Part shown: positions 14,716 through 59,189 of the stretch, in pieces
Position numbering within the stretch: position 1 is the stretch's first letter
Layout: every line of letters starts with the position of its first letter
NCBI GenBank assembly: GCA_938030705.1
Contig: CALHIR010000002.1
Location: 2,515-66,514, forward strand
DNA length: 64,000 bases
From: Candidatus Poseidoniaceae archaeon
Lineage (GTDB): Archaea; Thermoplasmatota; Poseidoniia; Poseidoniales; Poseidoniaceae
Reading direction: 5' to 3'
Made by a program: the position numbers and the translations under genes
Notes under the pieces: generated by a model
Told to the model about the DNA's origin: nothing
Databases searched by the model: none
What the model saw: only the letters and a program-made list of their open reading frames with translations

Positions 14716-16965
<2,250 letters not shown>

Positions 16966-17769: not shown

Positions 17770-17853
17770 GGTGCAGGGTGCGGCCCGATGCCCTTCAACA
17801 CTTTCCCCGTTTGGTCACAAAACCTTCATCATCAACGATACGGCCCTCAGGGC

Positions 17854-19038: not shown

Positions 19039-19851
19039 ACGAAGATGTTCTTTGATGCGCTGCTTGGTCGCATCGCATTCCAATCCGTTGGAGGACAGGA
19101 GCCATCCGATGTAGGACGGGTCATTGGTTTGAACTTCTGACAAATAGCGGCCCCGATGCCGTCCAAAGGCCAGAACGAGTTCGCCGCCGTCTTCCCTGAC
19201 TTTCCCCATGGCGTCCACCGGCACCAGATCGTCGAGGCCGCGCCCCAACGCCGAGGCGTCTTTGGGTCGGTCACCGTGGGCAATCCAACGTTCCAGTTCG
19301 GGAAGCGAACGGCGAAAGACGGCAGCATGTTCAACGGAGAGGCGCCAAAACAACAGCATGGTCGCCGCTGCATCGGCTGCCGCCGTGTGAGCCGCTTCTA
19401 GTCGTATGCCGTGGCGCCGACACAAAGCGCCGAGGTTGTGTGGCCGAGGCAGACGAAGTCGGCGAACCAACTCCAGGGTGTCCATGATCGCCTTCGGTTG
19501 TGGGGCGAGACGACCCATGCGTAGGAATTCAGTTTTCAGCATGGCGTAGTCAAAACTTCGGACGTTATGACCCACGAGGATGGCGCCTTCAATCAACTCA
19601 GCCAACTCGTCAGCAACCTCGGAAAGTGGGGGTTTGTCCCGCACATCTTCGTTGAAGATGCCGTGAATCTGACTGGCGTCGTAGGGAATACGAATCCCCG
19701 GCTTCACGACCTGTTCTCGGTTGACCGGCGTACCGTCTTCGAGTGTTCCGATGAGGGCAAATTGAACGATACGGTCGTTGTTGGTTGAAACGCCTGTGGT
19801 CTCCAAATCGAAAGCCAAGACTTTCTCACCTACGAAAAGGTCCTGTGCCAT
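19033..19851 (-). CDS. DEDDh 3'-5' exonuclease (DnaQ/epsilon-like) with C-terminal extension
   Basis: VLAFDLETTG (Exo I), VGHNVRSFDYAML (Exo II) and HTAAADA (Exo III) motifs. Convergent with the Cas4-like gene, overlapping by 6 nt. Confidence 0.8.
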   Translation of the reverse strand: MAQDLFVGEKVLAFDLETTGVSTNNDRIVQFALIGTLEDGTPVNREQVVKPGIRIPYDASQIHGIFNEDVRDKPPLSEVADELAELIEGAILVGHNVRSFDYAMLKTEFLRMGRLAPQPKAIMDTLELVRRLRLPRPHNLGALCRRHGIRLEAAHTAAADAAATMLLFWRLSVEHAAVFRRSLPELERWIAHGDRPKDASALGRGLDDLVPVDAMGKVREDGGELVLAFGRHRGRYLSEVQTNDPSYIGWLLSSNGLECDATKQRIKEHLRS

Positions 19852-24017: not shown

Positions 24018-24094
24018 TGGCGGCCCCACCGCGATTCGAACACGGGTTCGAGGCTCCGCAAGCCTCTGTGATATCCAAGCTACACTATAGGGCC
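24018..24094 (-). tRNA. tRNA-Arg (anticodon GCG), CCA encoded
   Basis: Reverse complement: GGCCCTA-TA-GTGT...-GAGGC-TTGCGGA-GCCTC-GAAC-CCGTG-TTCGAAT-CGCGG-TGGGGCC-G-CCA. 7-bp acceptor stem with one G-U. 5-bp anticodon stem, U33, anticodon GCG. T-arm GTTCGAATC. Confidence 0.8.
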
Positions 24095-45568: not shown

Positions 45569-46442
45569 ACGCAACGGCCAAGCAAACCATGAGGGCGGTT
45601 GAGAACGTCGAAAGAGCAGGAGTGTCCTCACTCTCTTCTTCTGCTTCATCGGGCTGGATTGGTTCCTCGATCACGACCGGCATGATTTCGTAGATGAGGT
45701 GAATTTCCAAATCGTTGCCATCAAAGGGCGTCGGCAAGTTGACCATCGCCGTGCCCTGTGATGAATTTCCAACCCCAAGCATGCTGTGAACAATATGAGG
45801 GTAGGTGCCCAAACCGTTGGTGCCTTCATCAAAGTCGGCGGCGGTCTCAACAATCCAAACAGAAACGTTCAGGGTTGCGTTCTCAAGAAATTGTTCGTCG
45901 AGGTCCAAGGCCCACCCTACGGTGCCTGATGTGTTGCTCAAAGGCGTCCATGAAAAGGCGGTGCTGCCGCTACCAAGAGCCAAATCACGTTGAGCCAGGT
46001 TGGTGAATTCGTTGACCAACGTCCCGTCATCCGCAACGCTTCCGATCTTCTTCATCGTCCCGTTGAAAACGACTGCAGGCGGTGCGTTGAGTCCGTACTT
46101 GTCTCGCCACCGCTGGTCAATTTCTTCGCTTCCAAAGGGGTCTTGGGTCTCGCCGATGGACCGATGAATATGGTACTGTTGGAGATGACCAGCGAGCTGC
46201 ACGTCTTCGAGGGCGTGCTCCACGTCAACACAGTTCTCGCACCAGGTGGCCGTATACACCTCAACAACAGCGGTCAGATCACTCAAGTTGGTCGTGGTGG
46301 AAGCCGTGGTGTTCGCAGGTGTCCACTGGCCGCCGAAGACCATGCCGTTCTCAAGGTCTGTAGCGGGCAGCGCCATGGTTGAAGGGGTCGTCGAAGCAAG
46401 AAGCAAAATGGCAAGCAAGGTTGCAGTCCCGGTCAATCGCAT
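45528..46442 (-). CDS. Secreted thioredoxin-fold protein (WCxxC) with C-terminal membrane anchor
   Basis: Signal peptide MRLTGTATLLAILLLA. Redox motif YTATWCENCVD. C-terminal hydrophobic anchor. The track ORF start at 46616 would overlap tfb; ATG 46442 is preferred. Confidence 0.6.
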   Translation of the reverse strand: MRLTGTATLLAILLLASTTPSTMALPATDLENGMVFGGQWTPANTTASTTTNLSDLTAVVEVYTATWCENCVDVEHALEDVQLAGHLQQYHIHRSIGETQDPFGSEEIDQRWRDKYGLNAPPAVVFNGTMKKIGSVADDGTLVNEFTNLAQRDLALGSGSTAFSWTPLSNTSGTVGWALDLDEQFLENATLNVSVWIVETAADFDEGTNGLGTYPHIVHSMLGVGNSSQGTAMVNLPTPFDGNDLEIHLIYEIMPVVIEEPIQPDEAEEESEDTPALSTFSTALMVCLAVAFSRRGGLNRLPRD

Positions 46443-46488
46443 GGACCCTCCGAGGCCCACCGAGGATATCAAACCGTCTTTGTTTGGC

Positions 46489-47649
46489 TCATTCCTCGGA
46501 TTCTTCTCCGACGTCCTCTTTGCTTGAAGGCTTCTTGGCCTCGTCCACAGGTTCTTCGAACAGAGATTCAGCTTCAGGGAATCGCCCCTCTTCGTACTGT
46601 TGTCGGAGAATGGCAAGACGACTCTTCAGTCCAGCACCGGTGCAACCAACGGCCTCAGCGATACCGTTGAGTTTCCCTTGGGCCAACTCCATTCGCTGAA
46701 GTACCTTGTACATGATACAGGCGGCGACCATGGGAACGGGCACGTTGGCCGTGGTTGCATCGACACTCGGTTCCCCGATGTCACTCATGGCCTTGAAGAA
46801 AGCGTCCATGACGGTGCCCAAGTCTTCGGCCTTCAAACGAGCAGCGAGCGCATCTTCGAGGTTGTGAACAGCCTTGTCCATGTCGTCTTCCCGGGCAGCG
46901 GCAAGGTGCAGCTGGTTGGGTCGGGGGGCCCATCCCATTCGGATACGAGCCAGGTAGTGCTGACGAATGATTTTCTTGGCGTTGATGAACTGCTTTTGAG
47001 TGATACCGTAGGTCTCCATCAACACTTTCTCGTTGATGCTGATGGTTCGGAACATCTTGGAAGCAAGGGAAGCGATGGCCAAGGCCATGATTTGCAAGTT
47101 GTCTTGTTCGGTGGCTCCTCGCAATTCAGGGTGCTCCTTTCCACCGGCTCGGCAAATGGCTGTCTTTGGGCACTTGAGCATACGCTTCTCGTTCGAACCC
47201 AATGTTCGTCGTCGTGCTTCCTGCCAAGGCTTCAGTTTACGTGCGGTTGTGCGCGCCAACAGTTCAACGGCCCGGGCCATGTCCGGCCCGAACATTTCTT
47301 GGATGGTGGCCATCAAGGAGGCGTACATGGGGTCAGTATCTCGCTGAGATGCAAGGTCCTTTCGAGCAAGGTCACGATACTTGCGGACGGTAGCTTTGTC
47401 CAATCGGTTACCATGGGCATCGAATTGATCGCCCCAGGGGTTCATTTTTGCCCCGTGCTTTGCTCCTGCAGTTGCAGCCCCTCGATTCACGGCCTCGTTG
47501 TGTCGGTTTTCTCCAAGTGAGCTACCGCTGTTGGTGTCTGCATCGTTCAGCATGTTTTCGTAGACCACGCCACAATTCATGCAGGACGCTTCTGCACGAG
47601 CATCATCAATTTCCAATTTTCCGCCACAATCTTCACACTTCTCTTTCAT
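46489..47649 (-). CDS. tfb: Transcription initiation factor IIB
   Basis: N-terminal Zn-ribbon CEDCGG...CMNCG; B-reader/linker and two cyclin-like repeats. TATA TTTAAATA about 35 nt upstream of ATG, plus GGAGG at -12. Confidence 0.8.
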   Translation of the reverse strand: MKEKCEDCGGKLEIDDARAEASCMNCGVVYENMLNDADTNSGSSLGENRHNEAVNRGAATAGAKHGAKMNPWGDQFDAHGNRLDKATVRKYRDLARKDLASQRDTDPMYASLMATIQEMFGPDMARAVELLARTTARKLKPWQEARRRTLGSNEKRMLKCPKTAICRAGGKEHPELRGATEQDNLQIMALAIASLASKMFRTISINEKVLMETYGITQKQFINAKKIIRQHYLARIRMGWAPRPNQLHLAAAREDDMDKAVHNLEDALAARLKAEDLGTVMDAFFKAMSDIGEPSVDATTANVPVPMVAACIMYKVLQRMELAQGKLNGIAEAVGCTGAGLKSRLAILRQQYEEGRFPEAESLFEEPVDEAKKPSSKEDVGEESEE

Positions 47650-48005
47650 TTTTCTTCCTCCTATGTATCATGGGCTCCACCCTATTTAAACATCATGTCG
47701 CATAATATCTCCTGCAATCTTCTTGTCTCGTTCAAAAAAACAGAATCTGGACATCACGTTTCTCATCAGGCCCCCATGACCATTTCATATTTATCAAAAC
47801 TAGTTTATATACTTTGCCCTAAAAACCCCATGCTGGATTGGAGAAAACCTCTCAGCCAAGGACAACGCATCTGCATTGAGAAGAGAATCAAAACACTGGC
47901 GCTTCCCTATTTGAACCTCGCGACGCTCCGTCAAGCCGGAACCAAAATCCGGCCCCCTCATCTTGAAATAGGCTCGTGTGCGTTCTCTTAGACAGGCTGG
48001 TTTTC
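47650..48005. promoter_or_regulatory. 356-bp AT-rich divergent control region between tfb (-) and the addB-like/addA-like operon (+)
   Basis: GC ~40% versus ~59% flanks. tfb TATA at 47683-47690 (minus strand). TATA-like tttatata at 47804-47811. Hairpin ccggaaccaaaatccgg at 47935-47955. ttgaaatagg about 40 nt upstream of ATG 48006. Confidence 0.5.
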
Positions 48006-51000
48006 ATGGTTTCATCAATCGCAATAACCTCGGAATATGTTCCTGCGGGGGAAGGCCTTCCTCCGTGGCTGTTCCAGGCGTTGTGTGAACCGTCCCACCA
48101 GGCACCGATGATGGTGCTTCATCCGACCGAGTTGCACCGTCAGCGCACCCTTGAACGCCTTCACCTCCAGGGTGTATCGGTTTCGCCCCAGTACCACCTG
48201 ACGCTCAACAGTCTCATTCGCCTCCTTCACGTCGATCTTCGCTTGCCCGTTCTCCTCGACGAGGAGGCCAGCACCTTCATGGCACTACACGGGAAGTGCG
48301 TGGAAGCAGCTGAAGCAACGGCCCTGCCCTTCCTTTACACGCCGGGCGTGGGGGCGTGGACCTTGAACAAAACTCGCCGCCTTCAGCGGCTCCACGGTGA
48401 ACTCATGCAGTTGCGGCACCCGTTCAAATGGGAAGGAGATCCCGGGGCGGCGGTGTTCCATGAACTGTGTTTGGAGGTTGAGGCTGCGGCCGGTGGCACC
48501 CTTCCAGCCCTCATCGCCGTCCATGTCCTCGAAGCCTTGAATGAAGCGAGTGAACCTCCGTTCCACCTTCGTGATATCGCCGGTATGGTGGTCCTGGACA
48601 CAGCGCCTGACTTCACCGAGGTCGAACAGGATTTGCTGCTCTCTATCGCCTCGTTTTGTCCCGTCCACCAATTGTTGAACCCCGGCTCGTTCCGACTGGG
48701 GTTTCACGGTGCTTACCTCGTGGATGAACCTCCGTGCACGTCCGAAACATTGCCCACCTGGCTCCCTTCCCATGAACCATGGGCGCCTGACGGAGAGGCT
48801 TGGCGAACGGAGGTAGGCCTGCGAAACCAGACTGAAATCACCCGTTTAACACTCGATGAGCGTTCTCAGGCCATGGACGCTGCCTTGGCGTTGATTCAAG
48901 CCTACAAAGCAGAACACGACGGCGAAGTCTTGGTGGTTGATGCTGCAGCCAGTGACCGGGCACTCGAATGGTCGGCGGCACTTTCCACCATCGGCCTTAC
49001 TTGGCATTCAGGTTCTTCAGCCATGAATCAACAACCCCTCCATCACGCCGTCGTGCGTGCTGCATCGCTGGCCCAGGGCATGAGTTCTTGGGCACTTGCT
49101 TCGCTACGCAGCGTCTTCTTCTCTGCGACGATACCGCTGCTCGAAGACGCGTTTCCCCATCTCAACCATCCGACAGAGGGTACATGGCGTCCTCGCCCTG
49201 ATGCTCTTGTTCTTGAGGAGATTGCAAGGAACTTCCACGTTCTCGGGGGCCCGGGGGCCATCGCACGCTGGCTTGGGGTGCTTTCATCGGCAGCCCCGTC
49301 CTTCGCTGAACGAAAGCCCGAAGAGAAAGCTCGTGCGCTTGAGGAAACGCAGTGGTGGCTTGGGTGCTTATTGCATACGTGGGCCCCGCTGCTCTCCCCC
49401 GAAGACCGCCACCTGCTCAAGCACGCCGTCGTGGGTTGCACTTCGGGTGTGGCGCTCCCGCTCCCTCAATCCCTTTCTTCGGGCATGGGGTGGCTTTCGT
49501 GGTTTGTCTCGGTCGTCGACGTCCATGCTCTGGCCAACCGGCGTGCACCGTTTGATGTCGGCGTTGGCGCGCTTCAAGGTTTAATCGAGGCCATGAACGG
49601 CATCAAACATCAACTTCAATCCATGGACTTACCTTTTGATGACGGAGGCTCAGTTTTCGTTGACCTTCTCGAACACGTTGGAGCTACGGCCAAGATCACC
49701 CATCAATCCTCTCGCACCAATCGTCTTCACGTCGTTTCGCCGGAGGATGCTCTCGGGTGCAATGCGGACTTGATTTTGCTGGTGGGCATGGACGTTGATG
49801 CTTGGTCAATGAAATCTCCCACCGTTCCGTGGCTGGATGCGCCTTCCAGGCTGGAACTCGGTTTGTTTCAAAACGACCGTTCCGTACGGAGGGGCCGACA
49901 TCATCTTCGTCATTTGCTGAACGCCGGTCGTCACCTTGTCGTGTTCGATTCTTCGCCAGAAGAAGGCGGTGGTCCCAGCGCGCCGCTTGCTGAATGGTTG
50001 AATGACCAGCAACGAAGCAAGGCTTGGGACGCCATGCGAGCACCTCCGAGTTTCCTTCCCCCGTCCATGTACGAGGGAGACGAAGGCCCGAGGGCCTTCT
50101 CTTGGGTGCCGAGGGAAGAAGGTCATGGAAGTTGGCTCACCCCCGTTGTTTATGCGTCCGTTCAAACGGAGCACGGCCTCCATGAGGTACGTCAAGGCTT
50201 CAGCGGACGCAATCGCCGCCAACAACTCGGTTTGGACCTTCAGGCAGGGCTTCAGGGCCTTGAACAACTCAACCATCCAACGGCCGTGCTCGATGCCTAC
50301 GAGGGTGCAGTTCAGGCTGACCGGCGCCGACGGCAACCGTTGGCTAAACGCATTGAACCCGGTGAGACGTTCGCTTGGGAAAGGCGAGAGGATTTGCTCA
50401 GTGTGGATGCCGTCACCCTCCGACCAACGTCAGCCTCCCTCAAGGTAGAAAGTGTGGCGGCGGGTGTTTTCCCCCATCTTGGGTACCGTGGCGAGAAATC
50501 CGTTTCTTTGAGTGTAGATCCTCGCCCTCTTCCCGTCTATTCAGCCACCAACACCGGCTTAGACCACCGTTTTGGTCAACTTGAATCAGCCGTGGAACGG
50601 GAAGTTTGGTCGCCCAGTCGTCTTGAAGGATGGCTCAAATGCCCTCGTCAAGCGTGGTTGAAGCAAGCCCTCGGGGCGGACGACGATGAAGGCGGCGTGG
50701 CCGAGGACATTGACGTGAGGGTGCGGGGACAAATCGTCCACGAAACCGAAGCTGCGCTCTTGCAAGGCCACGGTGTACCGCTTGGTGCAGAAGTATCGAA
50801 CGAACCGGTGCCGTTGCACGCCGGCCCTATGGGCACGGGCAGGGCGGGATGGGACACCATCCTCGCTTTCCTTGAAGAGAAGGTGCACTGGCTTGGACGG
50901 CAGAACGCCGTCTCCGTTCATCGAACCAAGGACCTCATCGACGCAACAGCAGAGGAGTGGCAGGCCCACAAAGAAGGCGAGTTTGAACTGCCTCAAGAAG

Positions 51001-51743
51001 GGCGACTTGCTCGACTTTTAGAGGCTGACCTTTCCCTTAGACACGCTGCACCGGTGGCGGTGGAATGGTCGCCCACAACCGAAACGGAACGGTCGGTCTT
51101 GCTCGACCAAGACCCCGTTGACGCAACATCGGGTTTCCGTCTCTTCGGTTATGCAGACCGAGTTGATGTGTTGGTTTTGCCGAAGGCCATTCACGAGGCC
51201 TTGGTTGACGACGGTGTCCTTTCGGAAGCGGCTCATGAAACGCCGTTCCCCCTCCATTCCCAACCGCGTTCTGCTCAACGCTTGGTCGTCATCCGCGACC
51301 TCAAAACAGTCTCAGGCCCGAAGCCGGAAAACGTTGGAATGCGCCACACACGATGCTTGTTTGAAGACCTTCAACTTGCGTTGTATGCTCGGGCTTGGGA
51401 ATTGCTCCACCCCAACGACCGTGTCGTCGGTGTAGGTGCCAGCGAAGTGGGTGAATTTACCAAGCATCACGTGGAACTTGATGCCGACCTGCTCCCGTAC
51501 GCTGAGCATTTGGAACTTGGCGACATTACCGGGGTGTTCGCCAATCACTTCCCTCCCGAAACCCGCACCGGTGAACCAACCACGCCTTTCCGACGATGGC
51601 TGGCCGAGCGTTTGGCCGTTGCACAGCGTGCTGTTGACACCGCCGCACAAGGCCGAGTGAACCCGACACCGGGCGGTCACTGCCGGTACTGTTCCATCGC
51701 CCACTCCTGTGCGGTATCCGATTATTCAGGAGGTGATTTTTGA
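48006..51743 (+). CDS. AddB-like subunit: inactivated helicase-like N-region plus C-terminal RecB-family nuclease with AddB/Cas4-type Fe-S cluster Cys arrangement
   Basis: No Walker A. Nuclease motifs DRVDVLVL...VVIRDLKTVSG. One Cys upstream of the nuclease (GWLKCPRQAW) and three downstream (GGHCRYCSIAHSC), the AddB pattern. The track shows GTG 47976; ATG 48006 is preferred. Confidence 0.7.
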   Translation: MVSSIAITSEYVPAGEGLPPWLFQALCEPSHQAPMMVLHPTELHRQRTLERLHLQGVSVSPQYHLTLNSLIRLLHVDLRLPVLLDEEASTFMALHGKCVEAAEATALPFLYTPGVGAWTLNKTRRLQRLHGELMQLRHPFKWEGDPGAAVFHELCLEVEAAAGGTLPALIAVHVLEALNEASEPPFHLRDIAGMVVLDTAPDFTEVEQDLLLSIASFCPVHQLLNPGSFRLGFHGAYLVDEPPCTSETLPTWLPSHEPWAPDGEAWRTEVGLRNQTEITRLTLDERSQAMDAALALIQAYKAEHDGEVLVVDAAASDRALEWSAALSTIGLTWHSGSSAMNQQPLHHAVVRAASLAQGMSSWALASLRSVFFSATIPLLEDAFPHLNHPTEGTWRPRPDALVLEEIARNFHVLGGPGAIARWLGVLSSAAPSFAERKPEEKARALEETQWWLGCLLHTWAPLLSPEDRHLLKHAVVGCTSGVALPLPQSLSSGMGWLSWFVSVVDVHALANRRAPFDVGVGALQGLIEAMNGIKHQLQSMDLPFDDGGSVFVDLLEHVGATAKITHQSSRTNRLHVVSPEDALGCNADLILLVGMDVDAWSMKSPTVPWLDAPSRLELGLFQNDRSVRRGRHHLRHLLNAGRHLVVFDSSPEEGGGPSAPLAEWLNDQQRSKAWDAMRAPPSFLPPSMYEGDEGPRAFSWVPREEGHGSWLTPVVYASVQTEHGLHEVRQGFSGRNRRQQLGLDLQAGLQGLEQLNHPTAVLDAYEGAVQADRRRRQPLAKRIEPGETFAWERREDLLSVDAVTLRPTSASLKVESVAAGVFPHLGYRGEKSVSLSVDPRPLPVYSATNTGLDHRFGQLESAVEREVWSPSRLEGWLKCPRQAWLKQALGADDDEGGVAEDIDVRVRGQIVHETEAALLQGHGVPLGAEVSNEPVPLHAGPMGTGRAGWDTILAFLEEKVHWLGRQNAVSVHRTKDLIDATAEEWQAHKEGEFELPQEGRLARLLEADLSLRHAAPVAVEWSPTTETERSVLLDQDPVDATSGFRLFGYADRVDVLVLPKAIHEALVDDGVLSEAAHETPFPLHSQPRSAQRLVVIRDLKTVSGPKPENVGMRHTRCLFEDLQLALYARAWELLHPNDRVVGVGASEVGEFTKHHVELDADLLPYAEHLELGDITGVFANHFPPETRTGEPTTPFRRWLAERLAVAQRAVDTAAQGRVNPTPGGHCRYCSIAHSCAVSDYSGGDF

Positions 51744-54700
51744 TGATTGAATTCAACAACAGTCAACGATTGGGCTTGGACCTCGATCGTCACATTGCGT
51801 TGGATGCCGGAGCAGGTACGGGGAAAACCACGGTGATGGCGGAACGCTACGTTCAGCACCTCATCGCTTCCGAACAACGCGCCACCCACGTGACCCCTTG
51901 TGGCCCACGCACCCCGCTTACCGGCCACGGTTCACTTCGCGCACCAAAACGAGAGCGAACCTCGGTGGAGGCCTGGCCGGGGCTGCTTCCTTCAGAAACC
52001 GTCGCCATTACCTTCACGAGAAAATCGGCGGCTGAACTCAAAGCTCGCATTCGCCACCGCCTCGCCTTGACCCGGGCCCTTCCACCCGACGAAGACGATG
52101 TGGACGGGGTGTTCGACCCTCGGCTTCGAAACGAAGGCGATGTTGAGATGTTGCTATCGGGGCTTGACGAGGCGCCCATTTCCACCATCGACGCCTTTCT
52201 TAGTCAACTGGTTCAACCCTACATCGATCTCGTCGCACTCTACCCCTCCAATCAACAAGTTTCCGAAGAACGAAAGCCGCTGATGGTGCAGGATACACTG
52301 CACGCCGTTTGGCGGATTCGCTCGGTAGAAGACGCTCGAGAAGCTGGCGTCCTGAATCACCACCAAGCCTTCCTCGAGGCTCGAAATCGGCTGGTGGGCC
52401 GGCTGGGCGGACAAGACCAAGCCGAGGTCGTGTTGGGCGGTCTTCTTGACCGTTCGTTATTCGTGGAACAGTCGCATCGTTCCATGATTCAACGGGCGGA
52501 GGCCATGGGCTTGGGATGGAACGGCCGAGGCCCGGCACCGGTGGATGTGTTGCTCAACACCATCGCTGAACCGGTTGAGCCCGTGTTGGGCGACTTCCTC
52601 GTTGAGTTCCATCAACATCTGAACGCTTGGGTGCAACATTTCCTGATGTATCGGGCTCAATGTGTTGAGCCTGCGGAGGCGGATACACACCTCACTCGTT
52701 TCAACCACCTTACCCGTCTTGCCACCGGTGCACTCCCCACTCAACCGGGTGAACAACTGGCTTGGTTTTGGAAGGCCTTACTCGGCATCGCTACCGCCAA
52801 AAATTTGCTCAAACCGGGTTGCACGTTCTTTCCAAGAGATCTCCTTCCCAGCGGCGATGGCTGGCCCTCTGGCCTGCTTTCCAAATCAAAGGCCAAGGGC
52901 ATCGGTAAGGACGAGAAAGCCGCCCTTTACGACGGGGCCCTCGTCCACCTCTCCAACTTGAGGCGACAGTTGAATTCGGCCGACGGGACCTTGATTCGTT
53001 TATTGGCGCGTTCAGCCTTCTTGCTCAACCCCGGGGACGGCTTCGATGGGATGCCGCTGGAAAGTGCGCTCCGGTTGGATCCACTGGAAGACCCGTTGCC
53101 CGCGGAGCCGAGCGAACGAGGCATGTACGTCTCCGCCACGCTCCAAAGTCAGGTGTTGAGCGATCTGCTGGTGCTTCACACCGCTTGCAATCAAATCCTC
53201 GCCCGTCGGAAATCGCTTGACAACATGCATGACTTTGACGATATGCAACGCTTTGCAGCCGACCTTTTGCTGGCTCGCTGCCCGGATATCTGCCGTCATC
53301 GGTACCCCCCAGAGGTCATCGATGCACTGGATGGTTTGGGCCATGAGCCATGGAGTGATGCACACATTTCGCGAGCGTTGACCCTGCTGAACGACCGCCC
53401 AACCTTGCAAGAAGACCTCCACCGACGCTTTTCCATCCTGGGCGAACTTCGACGCCAGTATCGCGCCTTCATCATCGATGAGTATCAAGATACGAACCCT
53501 TCACATTATCGCCTTCTGGCTCGCCTTTGGGGGCGTCGCCGCCACCATCCCGATGACCCATCACGGCCCCTTGGTGCGTGGGACCCAACGGTATGCATTG
53601 TGGGCGACATGAAACAGAGCATCTACCGATTCCGTCAGGCGGAAGTCTCCGTCATGCGCCGGGCGGTTGAGGCCATCCGCCAATTCAACATCGATGAAGA
53701 CGCTGAACCCCGACTCCAACATCTTCGGGAGCATGGATGCGGACGCGACCCACGCCCGGTCGGCGGAGGTGGTGAAACGGGTTCGTTTTCCAACGAGCAC
53801 ACGGGCGAGGTTTCAGCGCCCCACACCTTTGTTCGTTTTGCAGATGAAGACCGAGACGGGCAGCCTGATATCACCGGCCAGCGTTTACTCCGGCGTAGCG
53901 AAGGGCACGTTGACCTGACCTCAAATCACCGAACTCGACACGATTTGATGGAGACCATGAACGATGTATTCGATGAGGTGTTTGACCCGAGGTACCACGA
54001 CCTGCCGGGCGACTGGCACGCTGAGGCTCAGCGTCTTCTCCCCGCAAGGAACACCAGCGCCAGCGGAGGGTTGGAGTGGTTGCTTCCTATTCCGGGGTCC
54101 ATCGGCGAGGTACCACGAGACCTCGACGTGGCGGTGAACACGTTTGAGGACCCGTCGGCTTCCGTTGTTCATTTGGAACACGAACTCCTCGCCGACCGCC
54201 TCCATGCCCTTTTGCATCAAACGCCAACGAGGGTGTGGAACAGCCAAACTTCCCAGTGGGTTGAGGTAGTGGAAGCCGAAGAACCCCCGGTCCGCCCTCA
54301 AGACATCATGATCCTCATCAACTCACGAAAGCACCTCCCCGACCTCGTTGAGCGTTTGCGTGCCCGAAACATTCCGGTCATGGCCGACCGCCAAGGGCTT
54401 CTCTTGATGCAGCCCGTTGTACAACCCCTCATGGCGGTCCTGGCGCTCATGGCGCAGCCTGCCTTGCGGAGGGCGGCTGTTGAACTTGCTCGCTCTCCCG
54501 TTGTCGGCATGTCGGAACAGCAGGTGCACGAGGTGCTGATGTCCTTGGAGGTGGGCGGCGATGTGTTGACGCATTTGGTTGAACACGCGCCCACCGAACG
54601 CGTCGGGGCCCTCTTGTTCCGCCTTCGCCAACTCATTCGGTGGGGGGCCGTGTACGATGCCTTCGATCTGATCCTCGACGAATCGGACCTTCTCGTCGCT

Positions 54701-56683
54701 TACCCCGACGATGCTCAACGGCAATTTGCTGAGGCATGGTTGACCATCGTGCACTCGATTGGGAAGGATTCCGGCCACGACGTAGCGGCCATGTACCGAC
54801 GCCTGATGGCGGTTCGGGATTTGGGGAGTCAAGGGCCACAGGCGATCACGCACCCAACCGCTTCCGCCGTGCAAATCATGACCATCCACGGATCAAAAGG
54901 TCTCCAAGCTCCGGTCGTCGTGGTCACGGGTTTATTCTCCGCTGGCAAAGCCGATGCGAGCATGTCTGTTCAAGACAATATTTTGGTCACTCCTCAAGTC
55001 CTTGCAGGACGGATTCAACCGTGGCGAGCAAAGGACCGGCCTCATGATGGATTGTGGGCCTTCACGGCCGAGATGAACAAGGCACAGGATAAAGCCGAAT
55101 TGCGAAGGAAATTTTACGTCGCGCTGACCCGGGTGAAGGACCGTCTCATCGTAACAGGTTCTCCGGGCAATGCATCGACGTTTGACGAAACTTCAGGTGA
55201 ACTCTCGGTCCGATTTTCTCCCGACCCTCGGACGATGGGACGCATGTTGGTGGAGGGACTTCGGCGGGCGACATGGCGAACGGAAACGGCAGCTCCGTGG
55301 CTTTCTCAAGACGAGGTTGACCAGGCGACATTGCCGCTTTTCACCCCCCTCAAGACCGAGACACCCCTCAACCCAGCCGAGTTGTTAGCGACCATGCCAC
55401 TGGGTGAAAACGGCCTTCAAGGCCTCCGTTTGTACCACCACCCCGATTGTTTTGTGACCACCACGACCCGCTCAGCCCAAACTCGAGCCAAGGACATGGC
55501 GCTCCATTTGGGGAACCTTACGCCACCGGCGACTTCACCCGCCTCTCCCCTGTTGCTTGAAGAGAACATCAAAGGGGCCGCTCACCACCTTGATGCGACC
55601 TTTTCCTGTGCGCGGAAGTACTGGCTTGAGCACGTTAAAGGATGGCCCACTGAACCCTTCCGATTGCCCAACACCGCTACTGAACCCTCCACGCCGAGTG
55701 CATGGCCGGAGCCCACCACCTTCGGTTTGATGATGCACCGCGTGCTCGAAATCGGACTGCGAAACCCCTGTCATTTTGGCGATGCAACCCCTGCGCTTGA
55801 TTCGTCCTGGCAACACAAGAGCGATGCCGACCTTGCTTCCATTGAGACCATCGGGCGCGTGATGAACGAGTTTGGTTTCGGCCTTGAACAAGAATCCGAC
55901 ACGCGAGAGGCTGCGTGGCGCGATCGTTTGCTCTTGTTGGGTTCACTGGTGGATCAGGGATTGCTCGGCCGTTGGGTCCAAGGGGAGGTCTTGAACGGTT
56001 GGAAGGTTGAAGCCGTCCGTACTGAACTGCCTTTTTATCACCGAGAGGTGCTGACCAAGGGCGAAGGTGGCGATGGCGTGGAAGGGCCATATGCACAGTA
56101 CAACGGTGCTTCGGTGCAAAAAGTGAACATGGATTTCAACGGCCGGGCCGACCTGGTTTTGGCGTTGATGGATGAGCAAGGGCAAGGGGCGCTTCAGGTG
56201 GTTGACCTGAAAACTCGGGGCTGTCTGGGCGCCTTCAATCCAGACGAACCGGCCAAAGGCCATCCGCTTCAGGCGGTGCCACCAAGCGAAATCGATCCAG
56301 TTCCTCAGAGCGATGAAGAGGCTCACATCCTTTACGAACATCGCTTGCAATTGGCCTTGTATTCGATGGCGCTTGAATCCATTGAAGCCAAGAAGCCGGC
56401 ATCTGAGCAGCGACGCATTCTGCCGCCAGCGCTTCTGCTTGGGGCAAACGGGCGCATGGTTGAATTGTCTCAAGGGGCGTTTGAGCAGGCGAAAAAAGAC
56501 CTCAGGGCGCACTTGAACTGGCGGGCTTCGGTTCACCTCGATCAAAACATGGAGGAACCGTCTCGCCTTCCAAGCGGTTCAGCGACGTGCCGTCAATGCC
56601 CGTTTTACCGTGGAGATCTGCGCCGTTGTGGCCCGGAGGGTGAACCGTTGGGCTTCATTCATCAGATGGACGTTGAGCCGTGA
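51743..56683 (+). CDS. AddA-like subunit: UvrD/PcrA-family SF1A helicase fused to C-terminal RecB-family PD-(D/E)xK nuclease, enlarged to 1647 aa
   Basis: Helicase motifs: I LDAGAGTGKTT; Ia VAITFTRKSAAEL; II FIIDEYQDTNPSHYRLL; III GDMKQSIYRFRQAEV; V/VI TIHGSKGLQAPVVVV and YVALTRVKDRLIV. Nuclease motifs ADLVLAL...LQVVDLKTRG plus QLALY. GGAGGTGA RBS, and ATG overlapping the addB-like stop (TGATG). Confidence 0.8.
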   Translation: MIEFNNSQRLGLDLDRHIALDAGAGTGKTTVMAERYVQHLIASEQRATHVTPCGPRTPLTGHGSLRAPKRERTSVEAWPGLLPSETVAITFTRKSAAELKARIRHRLALTRALPPDEDDVDGVFDPRLRNEGDVEMLLSGLDEAPISTIDAFLSQLVQPYIDLVALYPSNQQVSEERKPLMVQDTLHAVWRIRSVEDAREAGVLNHHQAFLEARNRLVGRLGGQDQAEVVLGGLLDRSLFVEQSHRSMIQRAEAMGLGWNGRGPAPVDVLLNTIAEPVEPVLGDFLVEFHQHLNAWVQHFLMYRAQCVEPAEADTHLTRFNHLTRLATGALPTQPGEQLAWFWKALLGIATAKNLLKPGCTFFPRDLLPSGDGWPSGLLSKSKAKGIGKDEKAALYDGALVHLSNLRRQLNSADGTLIRLLARSAFLLNPGDGFDGMPLESALRLDPLEDPLPAEPSERGMYVSATLQSQVLSDLLVLHTACNQILARRKSLDNMHDFDDMQRFAADLLLARCPDICRHRYPPEVIDALDGLGHEPWSDAHISRALTLLNDRPTLQEDLHRRFSILGELRRQYRAFIIDEYQDTNPSHYRLLARLWGRRRHHPDDPSRPLGAWDPTVCIVGDMKQSIYRFRQAEVSVMRRAVEAIRQFNIDEDAEPRLQHLREHGCGRDPRPVGGGGETGSFSNEHTGEVSAPHTFVRFADEDRDGQPDITGQRLLRRSEGHVDLTSNHRTRHDLMETMNDVFDEVFDPRYHDLPGDWHAEAQRLLPARNTSASGGLEWLLPIPGSIGEVPRDLDVAVNTFEDPSASVVHLEHELLADRLHALLHQTPTRVWNSQTSQWVEVVEAEEPPVRPQDIMILINSRKHLPDLVERLRARNIPVMADRQGLLLMQPVVQPLMAVLALMAQPALRRAAVELARSPVVGMSEQQVHEVLMSLEVGGDVLTHLVEHAPTERVGALLFRLRQLIRWGAVYDAFDLILDESDLLVAYPDDAQRQFAEAWLTIVHSIGKDSGHDVAAMYRRLMAVRDLGSQGPQAITHPTASAVQIMTIHGSKGLQAPVVVVTGLFSAGKADASMSVQDNILVTPQVLAGRIQPWRAKDRPHDGLWAFTAEMNKAQDKAELRRKFYVALTRVKDRLIVTGSPGNASTFDETSGELSVRFSPDPRTMGRMLVEGLRRATWRTETAAPWLSQDEVDQATLPLFTPLKTETPLNPAELLATMPLGENGLQGLRLYHHPDCFVTTTTRSAQTRAKDMALHLGNLTPPATSPASPLLLEENIKGAAHHLDATFSCARKYWLEHVKGWPTEPFRLPNTATEPSTPSAWPEPTTFGLMMHRVLEIGLRNPCHFGDATPALDSSWQHKSDADLASIETIGRVMNEFGFGLEQESDTREAAWRDRLLLLGSLVDQGLLGRWVQGEVLNGWKVEAVRTELPFYHREVLTKGEGGDGVEGPYAQYNGASVQKVNMDFNGRADLVLALMDEQGQGALQVVDLKTRGCLGAFNPDEPAKGHPLQAVPPSEIDPVPQSDEEAHILYEHRLQLALYSMALESIEAKKPASEQRRILPPALLLGANGRMVELSQGAFEQAKKDLRAHLNWRASVHLDQNMEEPSRLPSGSATCRQCPFYRGDLRRCGPEGEPLGFIHQMDVEP

Positions 56684-57338
56684 GGATCAGCGTCCCACTC
56701 CAGCCCTCCTTGGCCCCAACTTGTATTGCTTCCACCTCGACGAACCCTGCCTGCTGCAACCCTTCCGTCCATTGTTCGATGGACAGCAGCGCCATGTGGA
56801 CGTTCAACGAAGGGCCCCAGTCGTGGCTTGCGGGGTTTTCCGCGTAGTGGTCAACGCCGATGACGATTTTTCCACCGGGTTTCATCCACGTGTCGTGCAA
56901 GGTTCTCAGGAACACCAGCGGCTCGGCGAGATAGTAGAGGCATTCCATGGTGTGAATCAGGTCCACCGGTTCAGCCGGCGACCAATCCGGGAGCATGGCT
57001 TCGACGTATTCGCCGTGGGGGTCAAGTTCCTTGGCCTTGGCGATCATCGATGGTGCACCGTCAACACCCGCTGCGTGGTCACACAGCGGATGGTCGTTCA
57101 ATCGACGGACAACCCATCCGTTTCCACAGCCGATATCGAGGGCCGTAAACGAAGTCTCTCGGTCTTCAAGAAGCCGATCGAGCATGATGTTCACGCTGGC
57201 AGTGTGGCCTTTTTCCATGCCCTCGTCGCGTCCATTGTCCGCCCATTCGCTGAACAGGTCGGTTGCTTTACGGAGTCCCATGGTCGCTGTGGCCTCACGG
57301 CGTTCAATGAAGATGTTCATGGCGAAAGGAACATGCAC
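56655..57338 (-). CDS. Class I SAM-dependent methyltransferase
   Basis: Motif I ALDIGCGNGW. Post-I acidic residue. GGKIVIGVDHY. Its 3' end overlaps the addA-like 3' end by 29 nt (convergent). Confidence 0.7.
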   Translation of the reverse strand: MHVPFAMNIFIERREATATMGLRKATDLFSEWADNGRDEGMEKGHTASVNIMLDRLLEDRETSFTALDIGCGNGWVVRRLNDHPLCDHAAGVDGAPSMIAKAKELDPHGEYVEAMLPDWSPAEPVDLIHTMECLYYLAEPLVFLRTLHDTWMKPGGKIVIGVDHYAENPASHDWGPSLNVHMALLSIEQWTEGLQQAGFVEVEAIQVGAKEGWSGTLILTAQRPSDE

Positions 57339-57358
57339 ACGCTCGCCTTGGAAAGTCC

Positions 57359-58321
57359 ATGCTCGACACCACCACCACCTTGGCCGATGTCCTCTATCCC
57401 CCCATTGAACCTCATGCAGAGGGCATGCTGGAGGTATCCTCCCTCCACACCATCGCTTGGGAACAAAGCGGGAACCCCGACGGCCTTCCCGTGGTGGTGA
57501 TTCACGGCGGACCGGGCGGCGGCGGCCAACCTTCCTATCGGCAATACTTCGACCCGACGGCCTTCAACATCGTGCAGTTTGACCAGCGTGGATGCGGGAA
57601 GTCAACCCCCTATGCGGAATTGGAAGACAACAACACGCACGCTTCGGTTGCGGACATCGAGGCCTTACGTGAGCATCTTGGTATCGAAACTTGGCATGTT
57701 TTTGGTGGTTCGTGGGGCTCAACCCTCGCCTTGATTTATGCTCAACATCACCCCGGGCGGGTGCGAAGTCTCGTGCTTCGCGGCATCTTCATGTGCCGTA
57801 AATCCGAACTTCACTGGTTCTATCAAGACGGCGCAAGTCACATCTTCCCCGACGCCTTTGCCCCCTACCGAGATCACATTCCCGAGGCGGAACGTTCGGA
57901 TTTGATCCGGGCTTACTACGCTCGTCTGACCAGTGAGGATGTCGAGGTTCGGCGGGCTGCTGCAAAAGAATGGACGCGATGGGAGATGGCGACCAGCCGT
58001 TTATTCCCCGACCCTGAATACTTGGACAAGGCCGAAGACCTTGATTTCGCTGTGGCCTTTGCTCGCATTGAATGCCATTACTTCATCAACGCCATCTTTG
58101 TTGAAGAGGCGTATATCCTGAAGCACATCGACCTCATTCAACACCTGCCGACCGTGATTGTTCAAGGCCGATACGACGTGGTGTGTCCCCCTCGCAGCGC
58201 CTGGGAATTGCATCAAGCCATGCCCAGCAGTCGCTTGGTCATGGTGGCCGATGCGGGCCATTCGATGGGCGAGGTCAGCATTGCCCGAGAATTGGTAGCC
58301 GCCACGGACGCGCTTCGCTGA
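57359..58321 (+). CDS. pip: Proline iminopeptidase (prolyl aminopeptidase, alpha/beta hydrolase)
   Basis: LYPPIEP...GNPDGLPVVVIHGGPGGG...QFDQRGCGKSTP...GGSWGSTLAL are canonical Pip signatures. Confidence 0.8.
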   Translation: MLDTTTTLADVLYPPIEPHAEGMLEVSSLHTIAWEQSGNPDGLPVVVIHGGPGGGGQPSYRQYFDPTAFNIVQFDQRGCGKSTPYAELEDNNTHASVADIEALREHLGIETWHVFGGSWGSTLALIYAQHHPGRVRSLVLRGIFMCRKSELHWFYQDGASHIFPDAFAPYRDHIPEAERSDLIRAYYARLTSEDVEVRRAAAKEWTRWEMATSRLFPDPEYLDKAEDLDFAVAFARIECHYFINAIFVEEAYILKHIDLIQHLPTVIVQGRYDVVCPPRSAWELHQAMPSSRLVMVADAGHSMGEVSIARELVAATDALR

Positions 58322-58427: not shown

Positions 58428-59189
58428 ATGACGGAAGGAACCATCACGCCTGAGGTCCAAATCAAAGAGCTCCAAGAGGCGCTCGCCACCGAAACAGACC
58501 GCCTGCAAAAGTTGTTTGCTGCGTACGAAACTCAAGAGAAGGAACTTGTTGACGCCAAGGCGGAAATTGAGGTCCTCGAGAAGGAGATCATCGACCGAGA
58601 AATCGAAAAAGAATCGTTGGAATCCATCATCGCCGAAAAAGATGTTCGGGTTCGTGAACTGGAGATGAAAGCCACGAAGAACTCCAAGCGTGTTGAACAC
58701 CTTGAACCCGAATTGGATAAGATGGAAGAGAAGTACTCCCGTGAAAAGGACCGCCTCGGCAAGGTCTTCGGCATCGCAGAAGAGTTGGACAACGATTTGC
58801 GCTTGGCCGTCACGGAAATGAAGGCACGAGACGACTGGTATGTCGCCCACATGCAAATCTTCGAAGACCTGAACAAGGCCATCAAGGAACGCTACGAGAT
58901 GATCGAGCGAGCCGTTGAATCCGAACGAAAATCGCAACACATGTCCCGTGCGTTCACCGATCGCGTGGAAGAAATGGTCCAGGCTCGAAGCGAAGAGATG
59001 GCTGAAGAAGAGGCTGAAAGCGCACAGGCAGAAGAAGCGACAGCGGCCGTTGAGGTGGTCGAAGAAGCCGTTGCCGAAGAAGCACCGGCTGAAGCCGAAG
59101 CCGAGCAAGAGGCACCTTCTGAAGAGGCTTCAGAGGCGAACCCTGCCGCTGAGTGGGGCGATGCACAAGACCCCTGGGCTGCGGAGTAA
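58428..59189 (+). CDS. Coiled-coil acidic protein
   Basis: 253 aa; heptad-rich with E/K/L bias; Ala/Glu-rich C-terminus; no catalytic motif. Confidence 0.5.
   Translation: MTEGTITPEVQIKELQEALATETDRLQKLFAAYETQEKELVDAKAEIEVLEKEIIDREIEKESLESIIAEKDVRVRELEMKATKNSKRVEHLEPELDKMEEKYSREKDRLGKVFGIAEELDNDLRLAVTEMKARDDWYVAHMQIFEDLNKAIKERYEMIERAVESERKSQHMSRAFTDRVEEMVQARSEEMAEEEAESAQAEEATAAVEVVEEAVAEEAPAEAEAEQEAPSEEASEANPAAEWGDAQDPWAAE

Follow-up and report, generated by a model that had tools for sequence, protein, structure and literature searches.

What a two-gene operon with features of the bacterial RecBCD and AddAB helicase-nucleases is doing in an archaeal chromosome is the question raised by this locus. 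The operon lies in a 64 kb stretch of DNA, referred to here as the window, from a Marine Group II archaeon (Poseidoniales). That the chromosome is archaeal, as the initial annotation of the sequence had it, is evident from the presence of MCM, TFB, PAC2 and Trm1 genes and from homologues that carry the name Poseidoniales. Reviews and a 2026 preprint treat RecBCD/AddAB-type nucleases as not present in archaea and know of no Chi sites in archaeal genomes, in agreement with the view of the initial annotation that an AddAB-like machine is atypical here. The gene pair is undescribed for MGII/Poseidoniales in the searchable literature, outside of which lie subscription-only papers such as the AddAB/RecBCD phylogeny of Cromie 2009. 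The following sections set out the evidence that the pair likely specifies both subunits of an AddAB-class helicase-nuclease for processing double-stranded DNA ends.

Organisation of the operon

The locus had been described as two translationally coupled ORFs of 1245 and 1647 aa that diverge from tfb across an AT-rich spacer, and this description holds (Table 1) apart from the length of the second protein, which is 1646 aa from its ATG; the 1647 aa version would start at TTG 51740. The start of gene 2 is placed at ATG 51743 because homologues begin with MI.FN, and ATG 48006 is preferred as the start of gene 1 over an upstream in-frame GTG at 47976 (1255 aa) because the family alignment begins there. 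The coupling consists of a TGATG stop/start overlap at 51741-51745 together with a Shine-Dalgarno sequence. Overlaps of 1 or 4 nt persist in 66 of 76 related loci, a GGAGG/GGGGG-type sequence is also kept in related loci, and gene 2 directly follows gene 1 in all 76 informative loci, that is, those extending far enough past gene 1 to show gene 2. On these three grounds the genes are adjacent and co-transcribed in the addB-addA manner. The length of both ORFs is far beyond chance given their many full-length homologues.

Table 1 Coordinates of the operon and its surroundings (positions in the window)
Feature	Position	Strand	Details
Divergent intergenic control region, tfb to gene 1	47650..48005	.	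356 bp; GC 44.7% vs 56.9% in the window
TATA/BRE-like block CATCTTGAAATAGGCTCG	47959..47976	+	about 37 nt 5' of the gene 1 ATG; columns A..TT.AA.A.G.TCG conserved in 14 sequences
Gene 1, likely AddB-class subunit	48006..51743	+	ATG 48006, TGA 51741-51743, 1245 aa
Gene 1 residues 1-865, predicted inactivated UvrD-like helicase scaffold	48006..50600	+	no Pfam/NCBIfam match; fold aligns to AddB, AdnA, RecC and UvrD cores
Gene 1 residues 866-1245, RecB-family PD-(D/E)xK nuclease with 1+3 cysteines	50601..51740	+	PDDEXK_1, E 2.2e-13
Shine-Dalgarno sequence GGAGGTGA of gene 2	51729..51736	+	within the last gene 1 codons (Gly-Gly-Asp), 6 nt 5' of the ATG
Gene 2, likely AddA-class subunit	51743..56683	+	stop 56681-56683, 1646 aa; predicted sole motor and second nuclease
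Gene 2 residues 1-1140, SF1A helicase core	51743..55162	+	all motifs; lineage-specific insertions at about 45-87, within 174-570 and at 636-722
Gene 2 residues 1141-1646, linker and RecB-family nuclease	55163..56680	+	AF2 model, pLDDT 84.2
Class I SAM methyltransferase, outside the system	56655..57338	-	convergent; its 3' end shares 29 nt with gene 2; Methyltransf_23, E 3.4e-16

The spacer separates gene 1 from a TFIIB-type gene on the minus strand (46489-47649) and, aligned with 13 related loci, contains three conserved blocks. One of these, CATCTTGAAATAGGCTCG, is by its sequence likely to be the gene 1 promoter, which would give a short leader. At its other end the operon is bounded by the convergent methyltransferase gene and therefore comprises two genes, ending at gene 2. 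A plus-strand ORF at 56610-57500 was considered as a third operon gene and rejected as an antisense shadow of the methyltransferase, with no Pfam match and a composition unlike that of a protein; in the synteny comparison this ORF stands for the convergent methyltransferase gene. The NAD-dependent LigA reported about 30 kb upstream is located at 14764-16965, 31-33 kb from the operon. Other DNA-metabolism genes in the window encode MCM, 11 kb upstream, a solo PDDEXK nuclease and an ExoX-like exonuclease.

Architecture of the two proteins

Gene 1 encodes a protein whose N-terminal scaffold is presumed to be a ssDNA-scanning domain and whose C-terminal nuclease carries the invariant residues H912, D1054, D1098-x-K1100 and Q1123...Y1127. 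The initial annotation had proposed a protein devoid of ATPase motifs with a RecB-family nuclease between 1+3 cysteines, and both features are confirmed in the sequence. The Walker A motif ([AG]xxxxGK[ST]) is absent from all 30 family members, in which the few GK[ST] tripeptides occupy non-conserved positions. The cysteines follow the pattern C879...C1226-x2-C1229-x5-C1235, with C879, C1226 and C1229 invariant and C1235 at least 90% conserved, and in three family members a cysteine ligand has moved in a compensatory manner. In many AddAB enzymes the 1+3 cysteines around the AddB nuclease bind a 4Fe-4S cluster, and by its sequence signature the gene 1 set is the AddB-type iron-staple arrangement.

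The assignment of gene 1 to AddB rests on its predicted fold because detection by sequence failed. No AddB family in NCBIfam matches gene 1 at E <= 0.1, and a profile of 30 gene 1 sequences compared with PDB sequences left the AddB, AdnA and RecC chains unmatched and retrieved only Cas4 (E 0.07). The confident predicted structure has AddB as its best or joint-best fold match, followed by AdnA and RecC, and displays the four-subdomain UvrD-like fold without helicase motifs, succeeded by a RecB-family nuclease, that is typical of AddB.

A dual-motor, dual-nuclease enzyme resembling mycobacterial AdnAB (6PPJ, 6PPR, 6PPU, 7SJR, 9NP6), in which ATP is hydrolysed by both subunits, is extremely improbable. 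AdnA still has both Walker motifs, A and B (PMC3321194), whereas no gene 1 member has a Walker A or a GK[ST] at a conserved position, nor recognisable helicase motifs, so that Walker A and B motor motifs do not occur in both subunits. Comparison of the gene 1 and gene 2 families with hhalign yielded a match of 31 columns, not significant, at the position of motif V and no significant helicase-motif similarity, and the motif test contradicts a dual motor. The same comparison of gene 1 with bacterial AddA-like proteins gave a match limited to the first nuclease motif.

Gene 2 encodes a protein with Pfam matches to UvrD-helicase, UvrD_C, AAA_19 and PDDEXK_1, and the features attributed to it in the initial annotation are all present. 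It contains the complete set of UvrD/PcrA SF1A motifs followed by a C-terminal PD-(D/E)xK nuclease, the strings found being GAGTGKT, DEYQD, VGDMKQSIYRFR, MTIHGSKGL, YVALTRVKDRL, VVDLKTRG and QLALY, with the last two belonging to the nuclease. Across 30 sequences motifs I, Ia, II, III, IV, V and VI show little or no variation, and the H, D, DxK and QxxxY elements of the nuclease (H1332, D1470, D1488-x-K1490 and Q1536...Y1540) are also conserved. The protein is about 400 aa longer than B. subtilis AddA, the excess comprising approximately 34 aa behind Walker A, 130 aa between residues 174 and 570, 67 aa between 636 and 722 and 157 aa in the C-terminal third. The terminal CxxC...C motif (C1616-x2-C1619-x9-C1629) forms together with C1289 a second 1+3 cysteine set, whose members are lost or relocated jointly in individual family members. 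The gene 2 nuclease probably has an Fe-S staple of its own, so that both nucleases would bear one.

Profile searches place gene 2 with AddA, and at a considerable distance. Its best NCBIfam match is addA_Gpos (TIGR02785), which it hits with 150.1 bits where the cutoff is 707.65, and its third-best is addA_alphas (TIGR02784) with 103.8 bits against 860.75, so neither curated AddA equivalog model is satisfied; by family the ranking is AddA, then RecB, then PcrA/UvrD. Among solved structures B. subtilis AddA (3u44_A) is the best profile match with E 7e-33, ahead of AdnB, UvrD1, PcrA and RecB. The 40 nearest relatives outside the clade, retrieved with residues 1-1200 as a single query, all have the addA models as their best match, and nine of the 40 end in a similar CxxC...C motif. 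The model of the nuclease domain has a different set of neighbours in Foldseek, with Dna2 (5ean_A) as the best match along with AddB (4cej_B), the Cas4-family protein ACE1 and AdnA, all of them above RecB, and no AddA chain at E 0.001.

The overall likeness is to B. subtilis AddAB (3U44, 3U4Q, 4CEH-4CEJ; TIGR02785), as the addB-like gene precedes the addA-like gene and is translationally coupled to it, gene 2 joins an SF1A motor to a C-terminal RecB nuclease as AddA does, and gene 1 joins a UvrD-like scaffold without helicase motifs to a RecB nuclease with 1+3 cysteines in the manner of AddB. The differences, besides the archaeal host, are that gene 2 scores far short of the curated thresholds and sequence searches miss gene 1, that gene 1 lacks the Walker A of AddB, which in B. 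subtilis forms a nucleotide site stabilising the Chi complex (PMC3321194), that the gene 2 nuclease has its own 1+3 cysteines and a Dna2/AddB/Cas4-like fold, and that gene 2 is longer through three core insertions and an extended C-terminal region while gene 1 is longer by about 80 aa. Of the AddAB-like machine put forward in the initial annotation the core identity thus stands, with an AddA-like profile for gene 2 and an AddB fold for gene 1, and the canonical form does not, given the failed curated models, the missing Walker A and an AddA-like nuclease with cysteines of its own.

E. coli RecBCD (1W36 and others) offers a second parallel, in that gene 1 resembles RecC as a helicase-like scanner without a nucleotide site and gene 2 resembles RecB as an SF1A motor with a nuclease. 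RecBCD, however, has three subunits including the SF1B motor RecD and a single nuclease, in RecB (Saikrishnan et al. 2012; PMC3321194), whereas the gene 1 nuclease looks active, RecB scores below AddA for gene 2 and a RecD-like second motor gene is lacking, the operon being flanked by the convergent methyltransferase downstream and the divergent tfb upstream.

Dna2 of eukaryotes and archaea is a single polypeptide in which the nuclease is N-terminal to an SF1B 5'->3' helicase. It shares with gene 2 an Fe-S-stapled type of RecB-family nuclease and is the closest structure to the gene 2 nuclease domain, which would suit a role at replication forks or in some other transaction on DNA (fork reversal, restart, Dna2-like flap or 5'-end processing, completion of replication) in place of the main resection of double-strand breaks. 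The MCM, LigA, solo PDDEXK nuclease and ExoX-like exonuclease genes of the window could be read in the same way, and bacterial RecBCD also works at reversed forks and termini (PMC7776575). This role is nevertheless decidedly unlikely, since the combination of a motor-nuclease with a dead-helicase-nuclease is known only from the end processors AddAB, AdnAB and RecBCD (PMC3321194), the domain order of gene 2 is the reverse of that in Dna2 with an SF1A and not an SF1B motor, and the operon has no linkage to replisome genes. The pair is most likely a DNA-end resection enzyme with one motor and two nucleases.

Distribution, descent and the defence question

Gene 1 is encoded by at least 206 species genomes and its homologues fall into 73 clusters. 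Gene 2 has 374 database matches and nearly all of the 120 listed are full length; conservation over the full length of both genes extends down to 32-45% identity. The surroundings are housekeeping genes (tfb, methyltransferase, hydrolases, psd, radical SAM), with which the pair maintains rigid synteny over 80 species-level loci, and the same order of gene 1 and gene 2 recurs on a 3.0-Mb contig of the remotest relative recovered. The divergence values of gene 1 and gene 2 correlate with one another (Spearman 0.97), and those of both genes correlate with the values of the flanking housekeeping genes (0.86-0.96). The pair is under purifying selection and descends vertically.

The possibility that genes 1 and 2 are two independent adjacent enzymes, one a solo nuclease and the other a UvrD-nuclease fusion, with no complex between them, draws on the nearest bacterial relatives of gene 2, which are encoded alone. 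It is very improbable in view of the strict adjacency and the stop/start overlap maintained throughout the clade, the tight correlation of divergence between the two genes, and the fold of gene 1, shared with AddB, AdnA and RecC, which are all obligate partner subunits.

The initial annotation had further suggested an imported bacterial repair or anti-phage capacity, perhaps in a variable island, and neither a recent import nor the anti-phage role finds support. A recent horizontal transfer or island was rejected on the basis of ordinary GC, rigid synteny and divergence correlated with that of the neighbours. Because of the invariable adjacency, the housekeeping synteny and the neighbour-tracking divergence, the pair is regarded as a core operon of Poseidoniales and close relatives that is ancient and passed on vertically; such a widespread inheritance across the order is the very situation in which the initial annotation saw its novelty removed. 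No bacterial donor lineage emerged from the nearest cysteine-bearing AddA-like outsiders, which in the three contexts inspected are all solo genes without an AddB-like neighbour.

Gene 2 also resembles the UvrD-Cas4-like fusions of pfam12705, which have been reported in both bacteria and mesophilic archaea, occur solo or in Type III restriction-modification/Dcm-Vsr defence loci and have monophyletic helicase domains (Hudaiberdiev et al. 2017; PMC5704561). It shares their domain composition, in which a single polypeptide joins a UvrD-like helicase to a Cas4-like nuclease bearing putative Fe-S cysteines, but is neither stand-alone nor in a defence context, its invariable companion being an AddB-fold subunit encoded with it among housekeeping genes; the comparison is one of composition and context. 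A primarily antiviral function, either by RecBCD-like destruction of linear viral DNA or as a relative of these fusions, with repair as a secondary activity, would accord with this defence-linked architecture and with a nuclease fold nearest to Dna2, AddB and Cas4-family proteins, as well as with the degradation of phage DNA by bacterial RecBCD and AddAB. Both genes evolve 2-3x faster than most flanking enzyme genes (median identity 50% and 64% vs 83-88%), which is consistent with an arms race, although tfb and orf788 diverge comparably. GajB-type UvrD matches were returned by PADLOC, but these are partial and confined to the generic helicase core, gene 1 is unmatched and GajA, the OLD-family nuclease beside which GajB is found in Gabija, is absent. 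An antiviral role is unlikely, as the locus is fixed among housekeeping genes in all species examined and has no defence gene beside it, whether restriction, methylase, toxin or of another kind, its distribution lacks the patchiness of defence islands, the viral contigs searched contained zero copies, and the solo bacterial relatives have no AddB-like partner.

Proposed mechanism and significance

For the favoured AddAB-class enzyme a mechanism may be drawn by analogy with B. subtilis AddAB, from which we infer that a complex forms, as well as its Fe-S content, its polarity and which strand each nuclease cuts. A heterodimer of the gene 1 and gene 2 proteins would bind a DNA end, whereupon the gene 2 motor would draw in the 3'-ended strand in the 3'->5' direction and unwind the duplex (Saikrishnan 2012; PMC3321194). 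As in the single-motor, dual-nuclease bacterial enzyme, the 3' strand would thread through the dead helicase domain of gene 1 and be cut by the gene 2 nuclease, and the 5' strand would be cut by the gene 1 nuclease (PMC3321194). The gene 1 scanner may read a Chi-like sequence, upon which the 3' strand would be spared and a tail left for the archaeal recombinase RadA. The destruction of unprotected linear foreign DNA could be a by-product of the same activity. To our knowledge the loading of RadA by a bacterial-type machine is without precedent.

The job presumed for the pair, end resection for RadA-dependent recombination, is in archaea that of Mre11-Rad50-HerA-NurA, a system unrelated to the gene pair in its sequences and its architecture, as HerA belongs to the hexameric FtsK-type ATPases and the nuclease fold of NurA is a different one. 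Thermophiles have HerA-NurA linked to rad50-mre11, whereas the mesophile H. volcanii lacks it. Literature searches yielded nothing on Mre11, Rad50, HerA or NurA in Poseidoniales. It is tentatively proposed, as a rather unlikely possibility, that Poseidoniales, perhaps all of the class Poseidoniia, anciently acquired an AddAB-type machine as their main end-resection enzyme, replacing HerA-NurA or working beside it, with a Chi-like signal read by a nucleotide-free AddB-like scanner and the 3' tail passed to RadA and not to RecA. If true, this would be the first Chi-type system in Archaea and a bacterial resection machine, with Fe-S staples on both nucleases, that feeds a eukaryote-like recombinase. 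An underpowered k-mer search of the 64 kb and the syntenic loci found none of the over-represented Chi-like oligomers envisaged in the initial annotation. The 5-mers have mild skews that follow coding-strand bias and are gone in distant species, and the 7-mer TAACGAC (14:0) was rejected as a dispersed signal because nine of its 14 copies lie within a single giant ORF (39-6713).

The pair is a very divergent version of AddAB that is core to an abundant marine archaeal group. That an AddAB-class operon belongs to the core genes of an archaeal group ranking among the most abundant in the surface ocean, a strongly UV-exposed habitat, qualifies the generalisation that archaea are without RecBCD/AddAB-type enzymes and supplies a concrete resection candidate for the uncultured Poseidoniales. 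It bears on the unsettled question of long-range end resection in mesophilic archaea that lack HerA-NurA and is a natural experiment in which a bacterial-type end processor meets RadA and possibly CRISPR adaptation or virus restriction. The range of the AddAB family is widened by an AddB-like subunit that is without a nucleotide site, as RecC is, by two probable Fe-S staples and by large insertions in the helicase core, features which bear on the evolution of such machines from duplicated SF1 helicase-nucleases. Since the AddB-like partner was found by fold comparison and not by sequence profiles, similar systems may have been overlooked elsewhere.

The coupled gene pair and its motor subunit

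Gene 1, the AddB-class subunit, and gene 2, the AddA-class subunit, are long plus-strand ORFs that overlap in the stop/start sequence TGATG. The initial annotation had placed both ORFs, the overlap and a ribosome-binding site correctly, and all motifs that it quoted are present in the two sequences. The 1647 aa it gave for gene 2 is the count from a TTG at 51740, whereas the ATG at 51743 yields 1646 aa. The Shine-Dalgarno sequence of gene 2, GGAGGTGA (51729-51736), is located 6 nt upstream of this ATG and is encoded by the final codons of gene 1 (Gly-Gly-Asp-Phe-stop; window 51729-51743). The Gly-Gly near the C terminus of gene 1 is kept across the family, with G1242 invariant, possibly because of its dual use as coding and Shine-Dalgarno sequence. 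A candidate third operon gene at 56610-57500 (plus strand, 296 aa) was rejected as an antisense shadow of the convergent methyltransferase gene, and the operon thus comprises two genes.

Features of the window
Feature	Position	Strand	Remarks
Gene 1	ATG 48006 to TGA 51741-51743	+	1245 aa
Gene 2	ATG 51743 to stop 56681-56683	+	1646 aa
SAM methyltransferase	56655-57338	-	Methyltransf_23, E 3.4e-16; convergent with gene 2, 3' overlap 29 nt
tfb (TFIIB-type)	46489-47649	-	divergent from gene 1
tfb-gene 1 spacer	47650-48005		356 bp; 44.7% GC vs 56.9% for the window
orf788	43202-45568		no Pfam match
orf362	45528-46616	-	no Pfam match
orf253	58428-59189		no Pfam match
NAD-dependent LigA	14764-16965	+	
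Stand-alone PD-(D/E)xK nuclease	17788-19038	+	416 aa; full-length PDDEXK_1, E 4e-20
RNase T/ExoX-like exonuclease	19033-19851	-	
Giant ORF	39-6713		2224 aa; DUF4129 at its end, otherwise no domain annotation
Giant ORF	8961-13688		1575 aa; no domain annotation
Giant ORF	26274-30590		1438 aa; one FG-GAP repeat
tRNA-Pro(GGG)	8868-8945		78 nt; ARAGORN call, not reported by Rfam at gathering threshold
tRNA-Arg	24021-24094		only Rfam match at gathering threshold

Gene 2 had been described as a UvrD/PcrA-type SF1A motor with a C-terminal PD-(D/E)xK nuclease, and this is confirmed by its Pfam domains (UvrD-helicase, AAA_19, UvrD_C and PDDEXK_1) and by the SF1A motifs GAGTGKT, TFTRKAAAEL, DEYQD, VGDMKQSIYRFR, NHRT, MTIHGSKGL and YVALTRVKDRL, which are kept family-wide together with the nuclease residues H1332, D1470, D1488-x-K1490 and Q1536...Y1540. 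Profile HMMs bear out the proposed AddAB assignment in part only: the top NCBIfam model of gene 2 is addA_Gpos (150 bits), followed by RecB (112), alphaproteobacterial AddA (104), PcrA (71) and UvrD (52), all of them far under the equivalog cutoffs, which run from about 700 to 1100 bits, and no NCBIfam AddB model matches gene 1. When a profile of the gene 2 family (30 sequences) was compared with solved structures, Bacillus subtilis AddA came first (3u44_A, E 7e-33), ahead of AdnB (6e-19) and then UvrD1, PcrA and RecB. Mapped onto AddA, the roughly 400 surplus residues of gene 2 lie partly behind Walker A, partly within the 1B region, partly between motifs III and IV, and partly in the C-terminal third. 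The family is isolated, with about 25 full-length representatives scoring at least 386 bits and the next matches at most 128 bits in an exhaustive search with residues 1-1200. AddA models are the best match for all 40 of its nearest relatives beyond its own clade.

The partner subunit and the cysteine sets

By sequence, gene 1 is recognisable only as a PD-(D/E)xK nuclease (residues 868-1054), and its family profile does not reach the AddB, AdnA or RecC chains among PDB sequences. The likeness to AddB that had been proposed is borne out by the predicted fold. A model of residues 46-1245 built from a 53-sequence alignment (pLDDT 82.7, pTM 0.59) retrieved AddB chains first in a Foldseek search of the PDB (4cei_B, E 5.8e-16, TM 0.51/0.52 over the full length), followed by AdnA (1.5e-14), RecC (3.5e-8) and then UvrD helicases. 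With TM scores that are moderate, these matches identify the modelled gene 1 product as the partner-subunit type of three bacterial end-processing machines. Its nuclease is intact, as H912, D1054, D1098-x-K1100 and QLALY are invariant. Walker A is absent from 30 of 30 gene 1 homologues, a feature shared with RecC and in contrast to AddB, which keeps a Walker A that stabilises the Chi complex (PMC3321194). An AdnAB-like enzyme with two motors is contradicted by this lack of Walker A and is the weaker reading, and the pair does not qualify as RecBCD, since it has no RecD and the gene 1 nuclease is intact.

The four cysteines of gene 1 are conserved in the family. In three homologues (P0174, P0178 and P0180) CxxCx5C has become CxxCxxC, the last cysteine being lost and another gained three residues upstream of CxxC, and this compensatory gain argues for a real metal site. 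Gene 2 contains a second set, C1289 and C1616-x2-C1619-x9-C1629, which is present in most family members. Of the gene 2 homologues P0053 and P0082, one lacks all four cysteines and the other lacks the first and carries CxxCxxCx6C; ligands shift or vanish in a correlated fashion in the two families. In a structure search with the model of gene 2 residues 1140-1646 (pLDDT 84.2), Dna2, AddB, the Cas4-family ACE1 and AdnA all match better than RecB, and no AddA chain is found at E 0.001. From this nuclease model and the second cysteine set it follows that both nucleases are probably iron-stapled, a difference from the B. subtilis enzyme. The second set is not unique, since similar CxxC...C ends occur in 9 of the 40 nearest AddA-like relatives outside the clade. 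Fusions of UvrD with Cas4 have been reported from bacteria and mesophilic archaea (Hudaiberdiev et al. 2017, PMC5704561). The three outside relatives of gene 2 whose contexts were inspected are solo genes with no AddB-like neighbour.

Distribution and inheritance

That the pair resides on an archaeal chromosome is upheld by the archaeal hallmark genes of the window (MCM, TFB, two PAC2 genes and Trm1) and by the source names of homologues of both proteins, which are Poseidoniales, Poseidoniaceae, Thermoplasmatota or 'Euryarchaeota' archaeon. Relatives of gene 1 occur in at least 206 species-representative genomes, counted by matches among MAGs that are incomplete. The best 80 of these are Poseidoniales MAGs and include the 2.06-Mb MG-II chromosome CM001443.1 and Ca. 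Poseidonia alphae. Taken together, these data assign the window to a Marine Group II archaeon. Gene order in the 80 species-level loci is essentially invariant, running from a beta-eliminating lyase through orf788, orf362(-) and tfb(-) to the pair, and on through a methyltransferase(-), an alpha/beta hydrolase, orf253, psd and (hydrolase) to radical SAM. orf253 is itself highly conserved (63-98% identity across species). Gene 2 directly follows gene 1 in 76/76 loci of sufficient extent, and 66 of these retain the stop/start overlap. Identity to the window ranges from 35 to 81% for gene 1 and from 46 to 87% for gene 2; these values are correlated with the identities of neighbouring genes (Spearman 0.86-0.96), and those of gene 1 and gene 2 with each other (0.97). 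In the most distant full-length relative found, on a 3.0-Mb contig, a 1164-aa PDDEXK_1 gene overlaps a 1558-aa helicase-nuclease gene by 4 nt, with an archaeal-type PTH2 upstream and psd and radical SAM downstream.

The pair is an old core operon that is inherited vertically. A variable island or a recent import was rejected, given the essentially invariant synteny, the ordinary GC content and a divergence that tracks the flanking genes. The nearest outside relatives inspected sit in bacterial-looking contexts, which makes a bacterial origin plausible; the transfer would in that case predate the radiation of the group. A primary role in defence, in line with the anti-phage capacity that the initial annotation had suggested, is a weaker reading: the housekeeping context is fixed, PADLOC gave no specific matches and no viral copies were found. 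Contig NZEQ01000040.1 ('Verrucomicrobiales bacterium isolate ARS100') encodes gene 1 at 86% identity and keeps all of the gene order found upstream in Poseidoniales (lyase 93%, tfb 79%). It almost certainly represents archaeal DNA assigned to the wrong bin.

Automated annotation names gene 2 'UvrD-helicase domain-containing protein' or 'exonuclease V beta subunit' and gene 1 'hypothetical' or 'PD-(D/E)XK nuclease family protein', and no description of the pair was found in the openly accessible literature searched. Some MGII genomics papers mention no helicases, nucleases or DNA repair save an exodeoxyribonuclease III tree in one figure legend. Repair genes of bacterial type, LigN and UvrD among them, are already well known from mesophilic archaea, and the mesophile H. 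volcanii lacks HerA and NurA (PMC7776575). The identity of the enzyme is not exotic. Unrecognised until now are an order-wide AddAB-class machine in archaea, its nucleotide-free AddB-like subunit and its two predicted cysteine-stapled nucleases.

Mechanism, control region and other features

With a single complete SF1A motor, two RecB-family nucleases that are both intact, a scaffold that resembles a dead helicase and has a predicted AddB fold, and obligate genetic coupling, a single-motor, dual-nuclease AddAB mechanism is most likely. By analogy, the two proteins would form a heterodimer in which the gene 2 motor alone drives an enzyme with both nucleases and the 3' strand threads past a scanner domain. 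Each nuclease, holding Fe-S, would be assigned to one strand, and Chi-like control, if any, and hand-off to RadA would follow the same model. A k-mer search of the 64-kb window and syntenic loci, of low power at this length, found no Chi-like oligomer. For B. fragilis AddAB, recovery of DNA-damage resistance in a mutant host has been tested by complementation (PMC2887965). The pair makes end resection and Chi in archaea directly testable questions.

The divergent tfb and the AT-rich spacer had been noted correctly. The spacer contains three conserved blocks. One is TATA-like and lies about 35 nt away from the start of tfb, and another, TTGAAATAGG, precedes the gene 1 ATG by about 37 nt and is likely the gene 1 promoter. 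The central block (47785-47830; CATGAC..TTCATATT..TATATA..CCC), which precedes gene 1 by about 195 nt, is strongly conserved and its TATA-like element is stronger; the stretch separating it from the gene 1-proximal element is unconserved and varies in length. Promoter-like and with no obvious gene, the central block could be a second promoter, the start of a small RNA or a regulator site.

Elsewhere in the window, the LigA gene, also named correctly in the initial annotation, opens a cluster of bacterial-type DNA-metabolism genes (14764-19851) that has an archaeal PAC2 gene among them. The tRNA-Pro(GGG) call may be spurious, or it may mark an archaeal tRNA that is atypical or contains an intron. 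TAACGAC occurs in 14 copies in the window, and the nine within the 2224-aa giant ORF, all on the plus strand, suggest internally repeated coding sequence.
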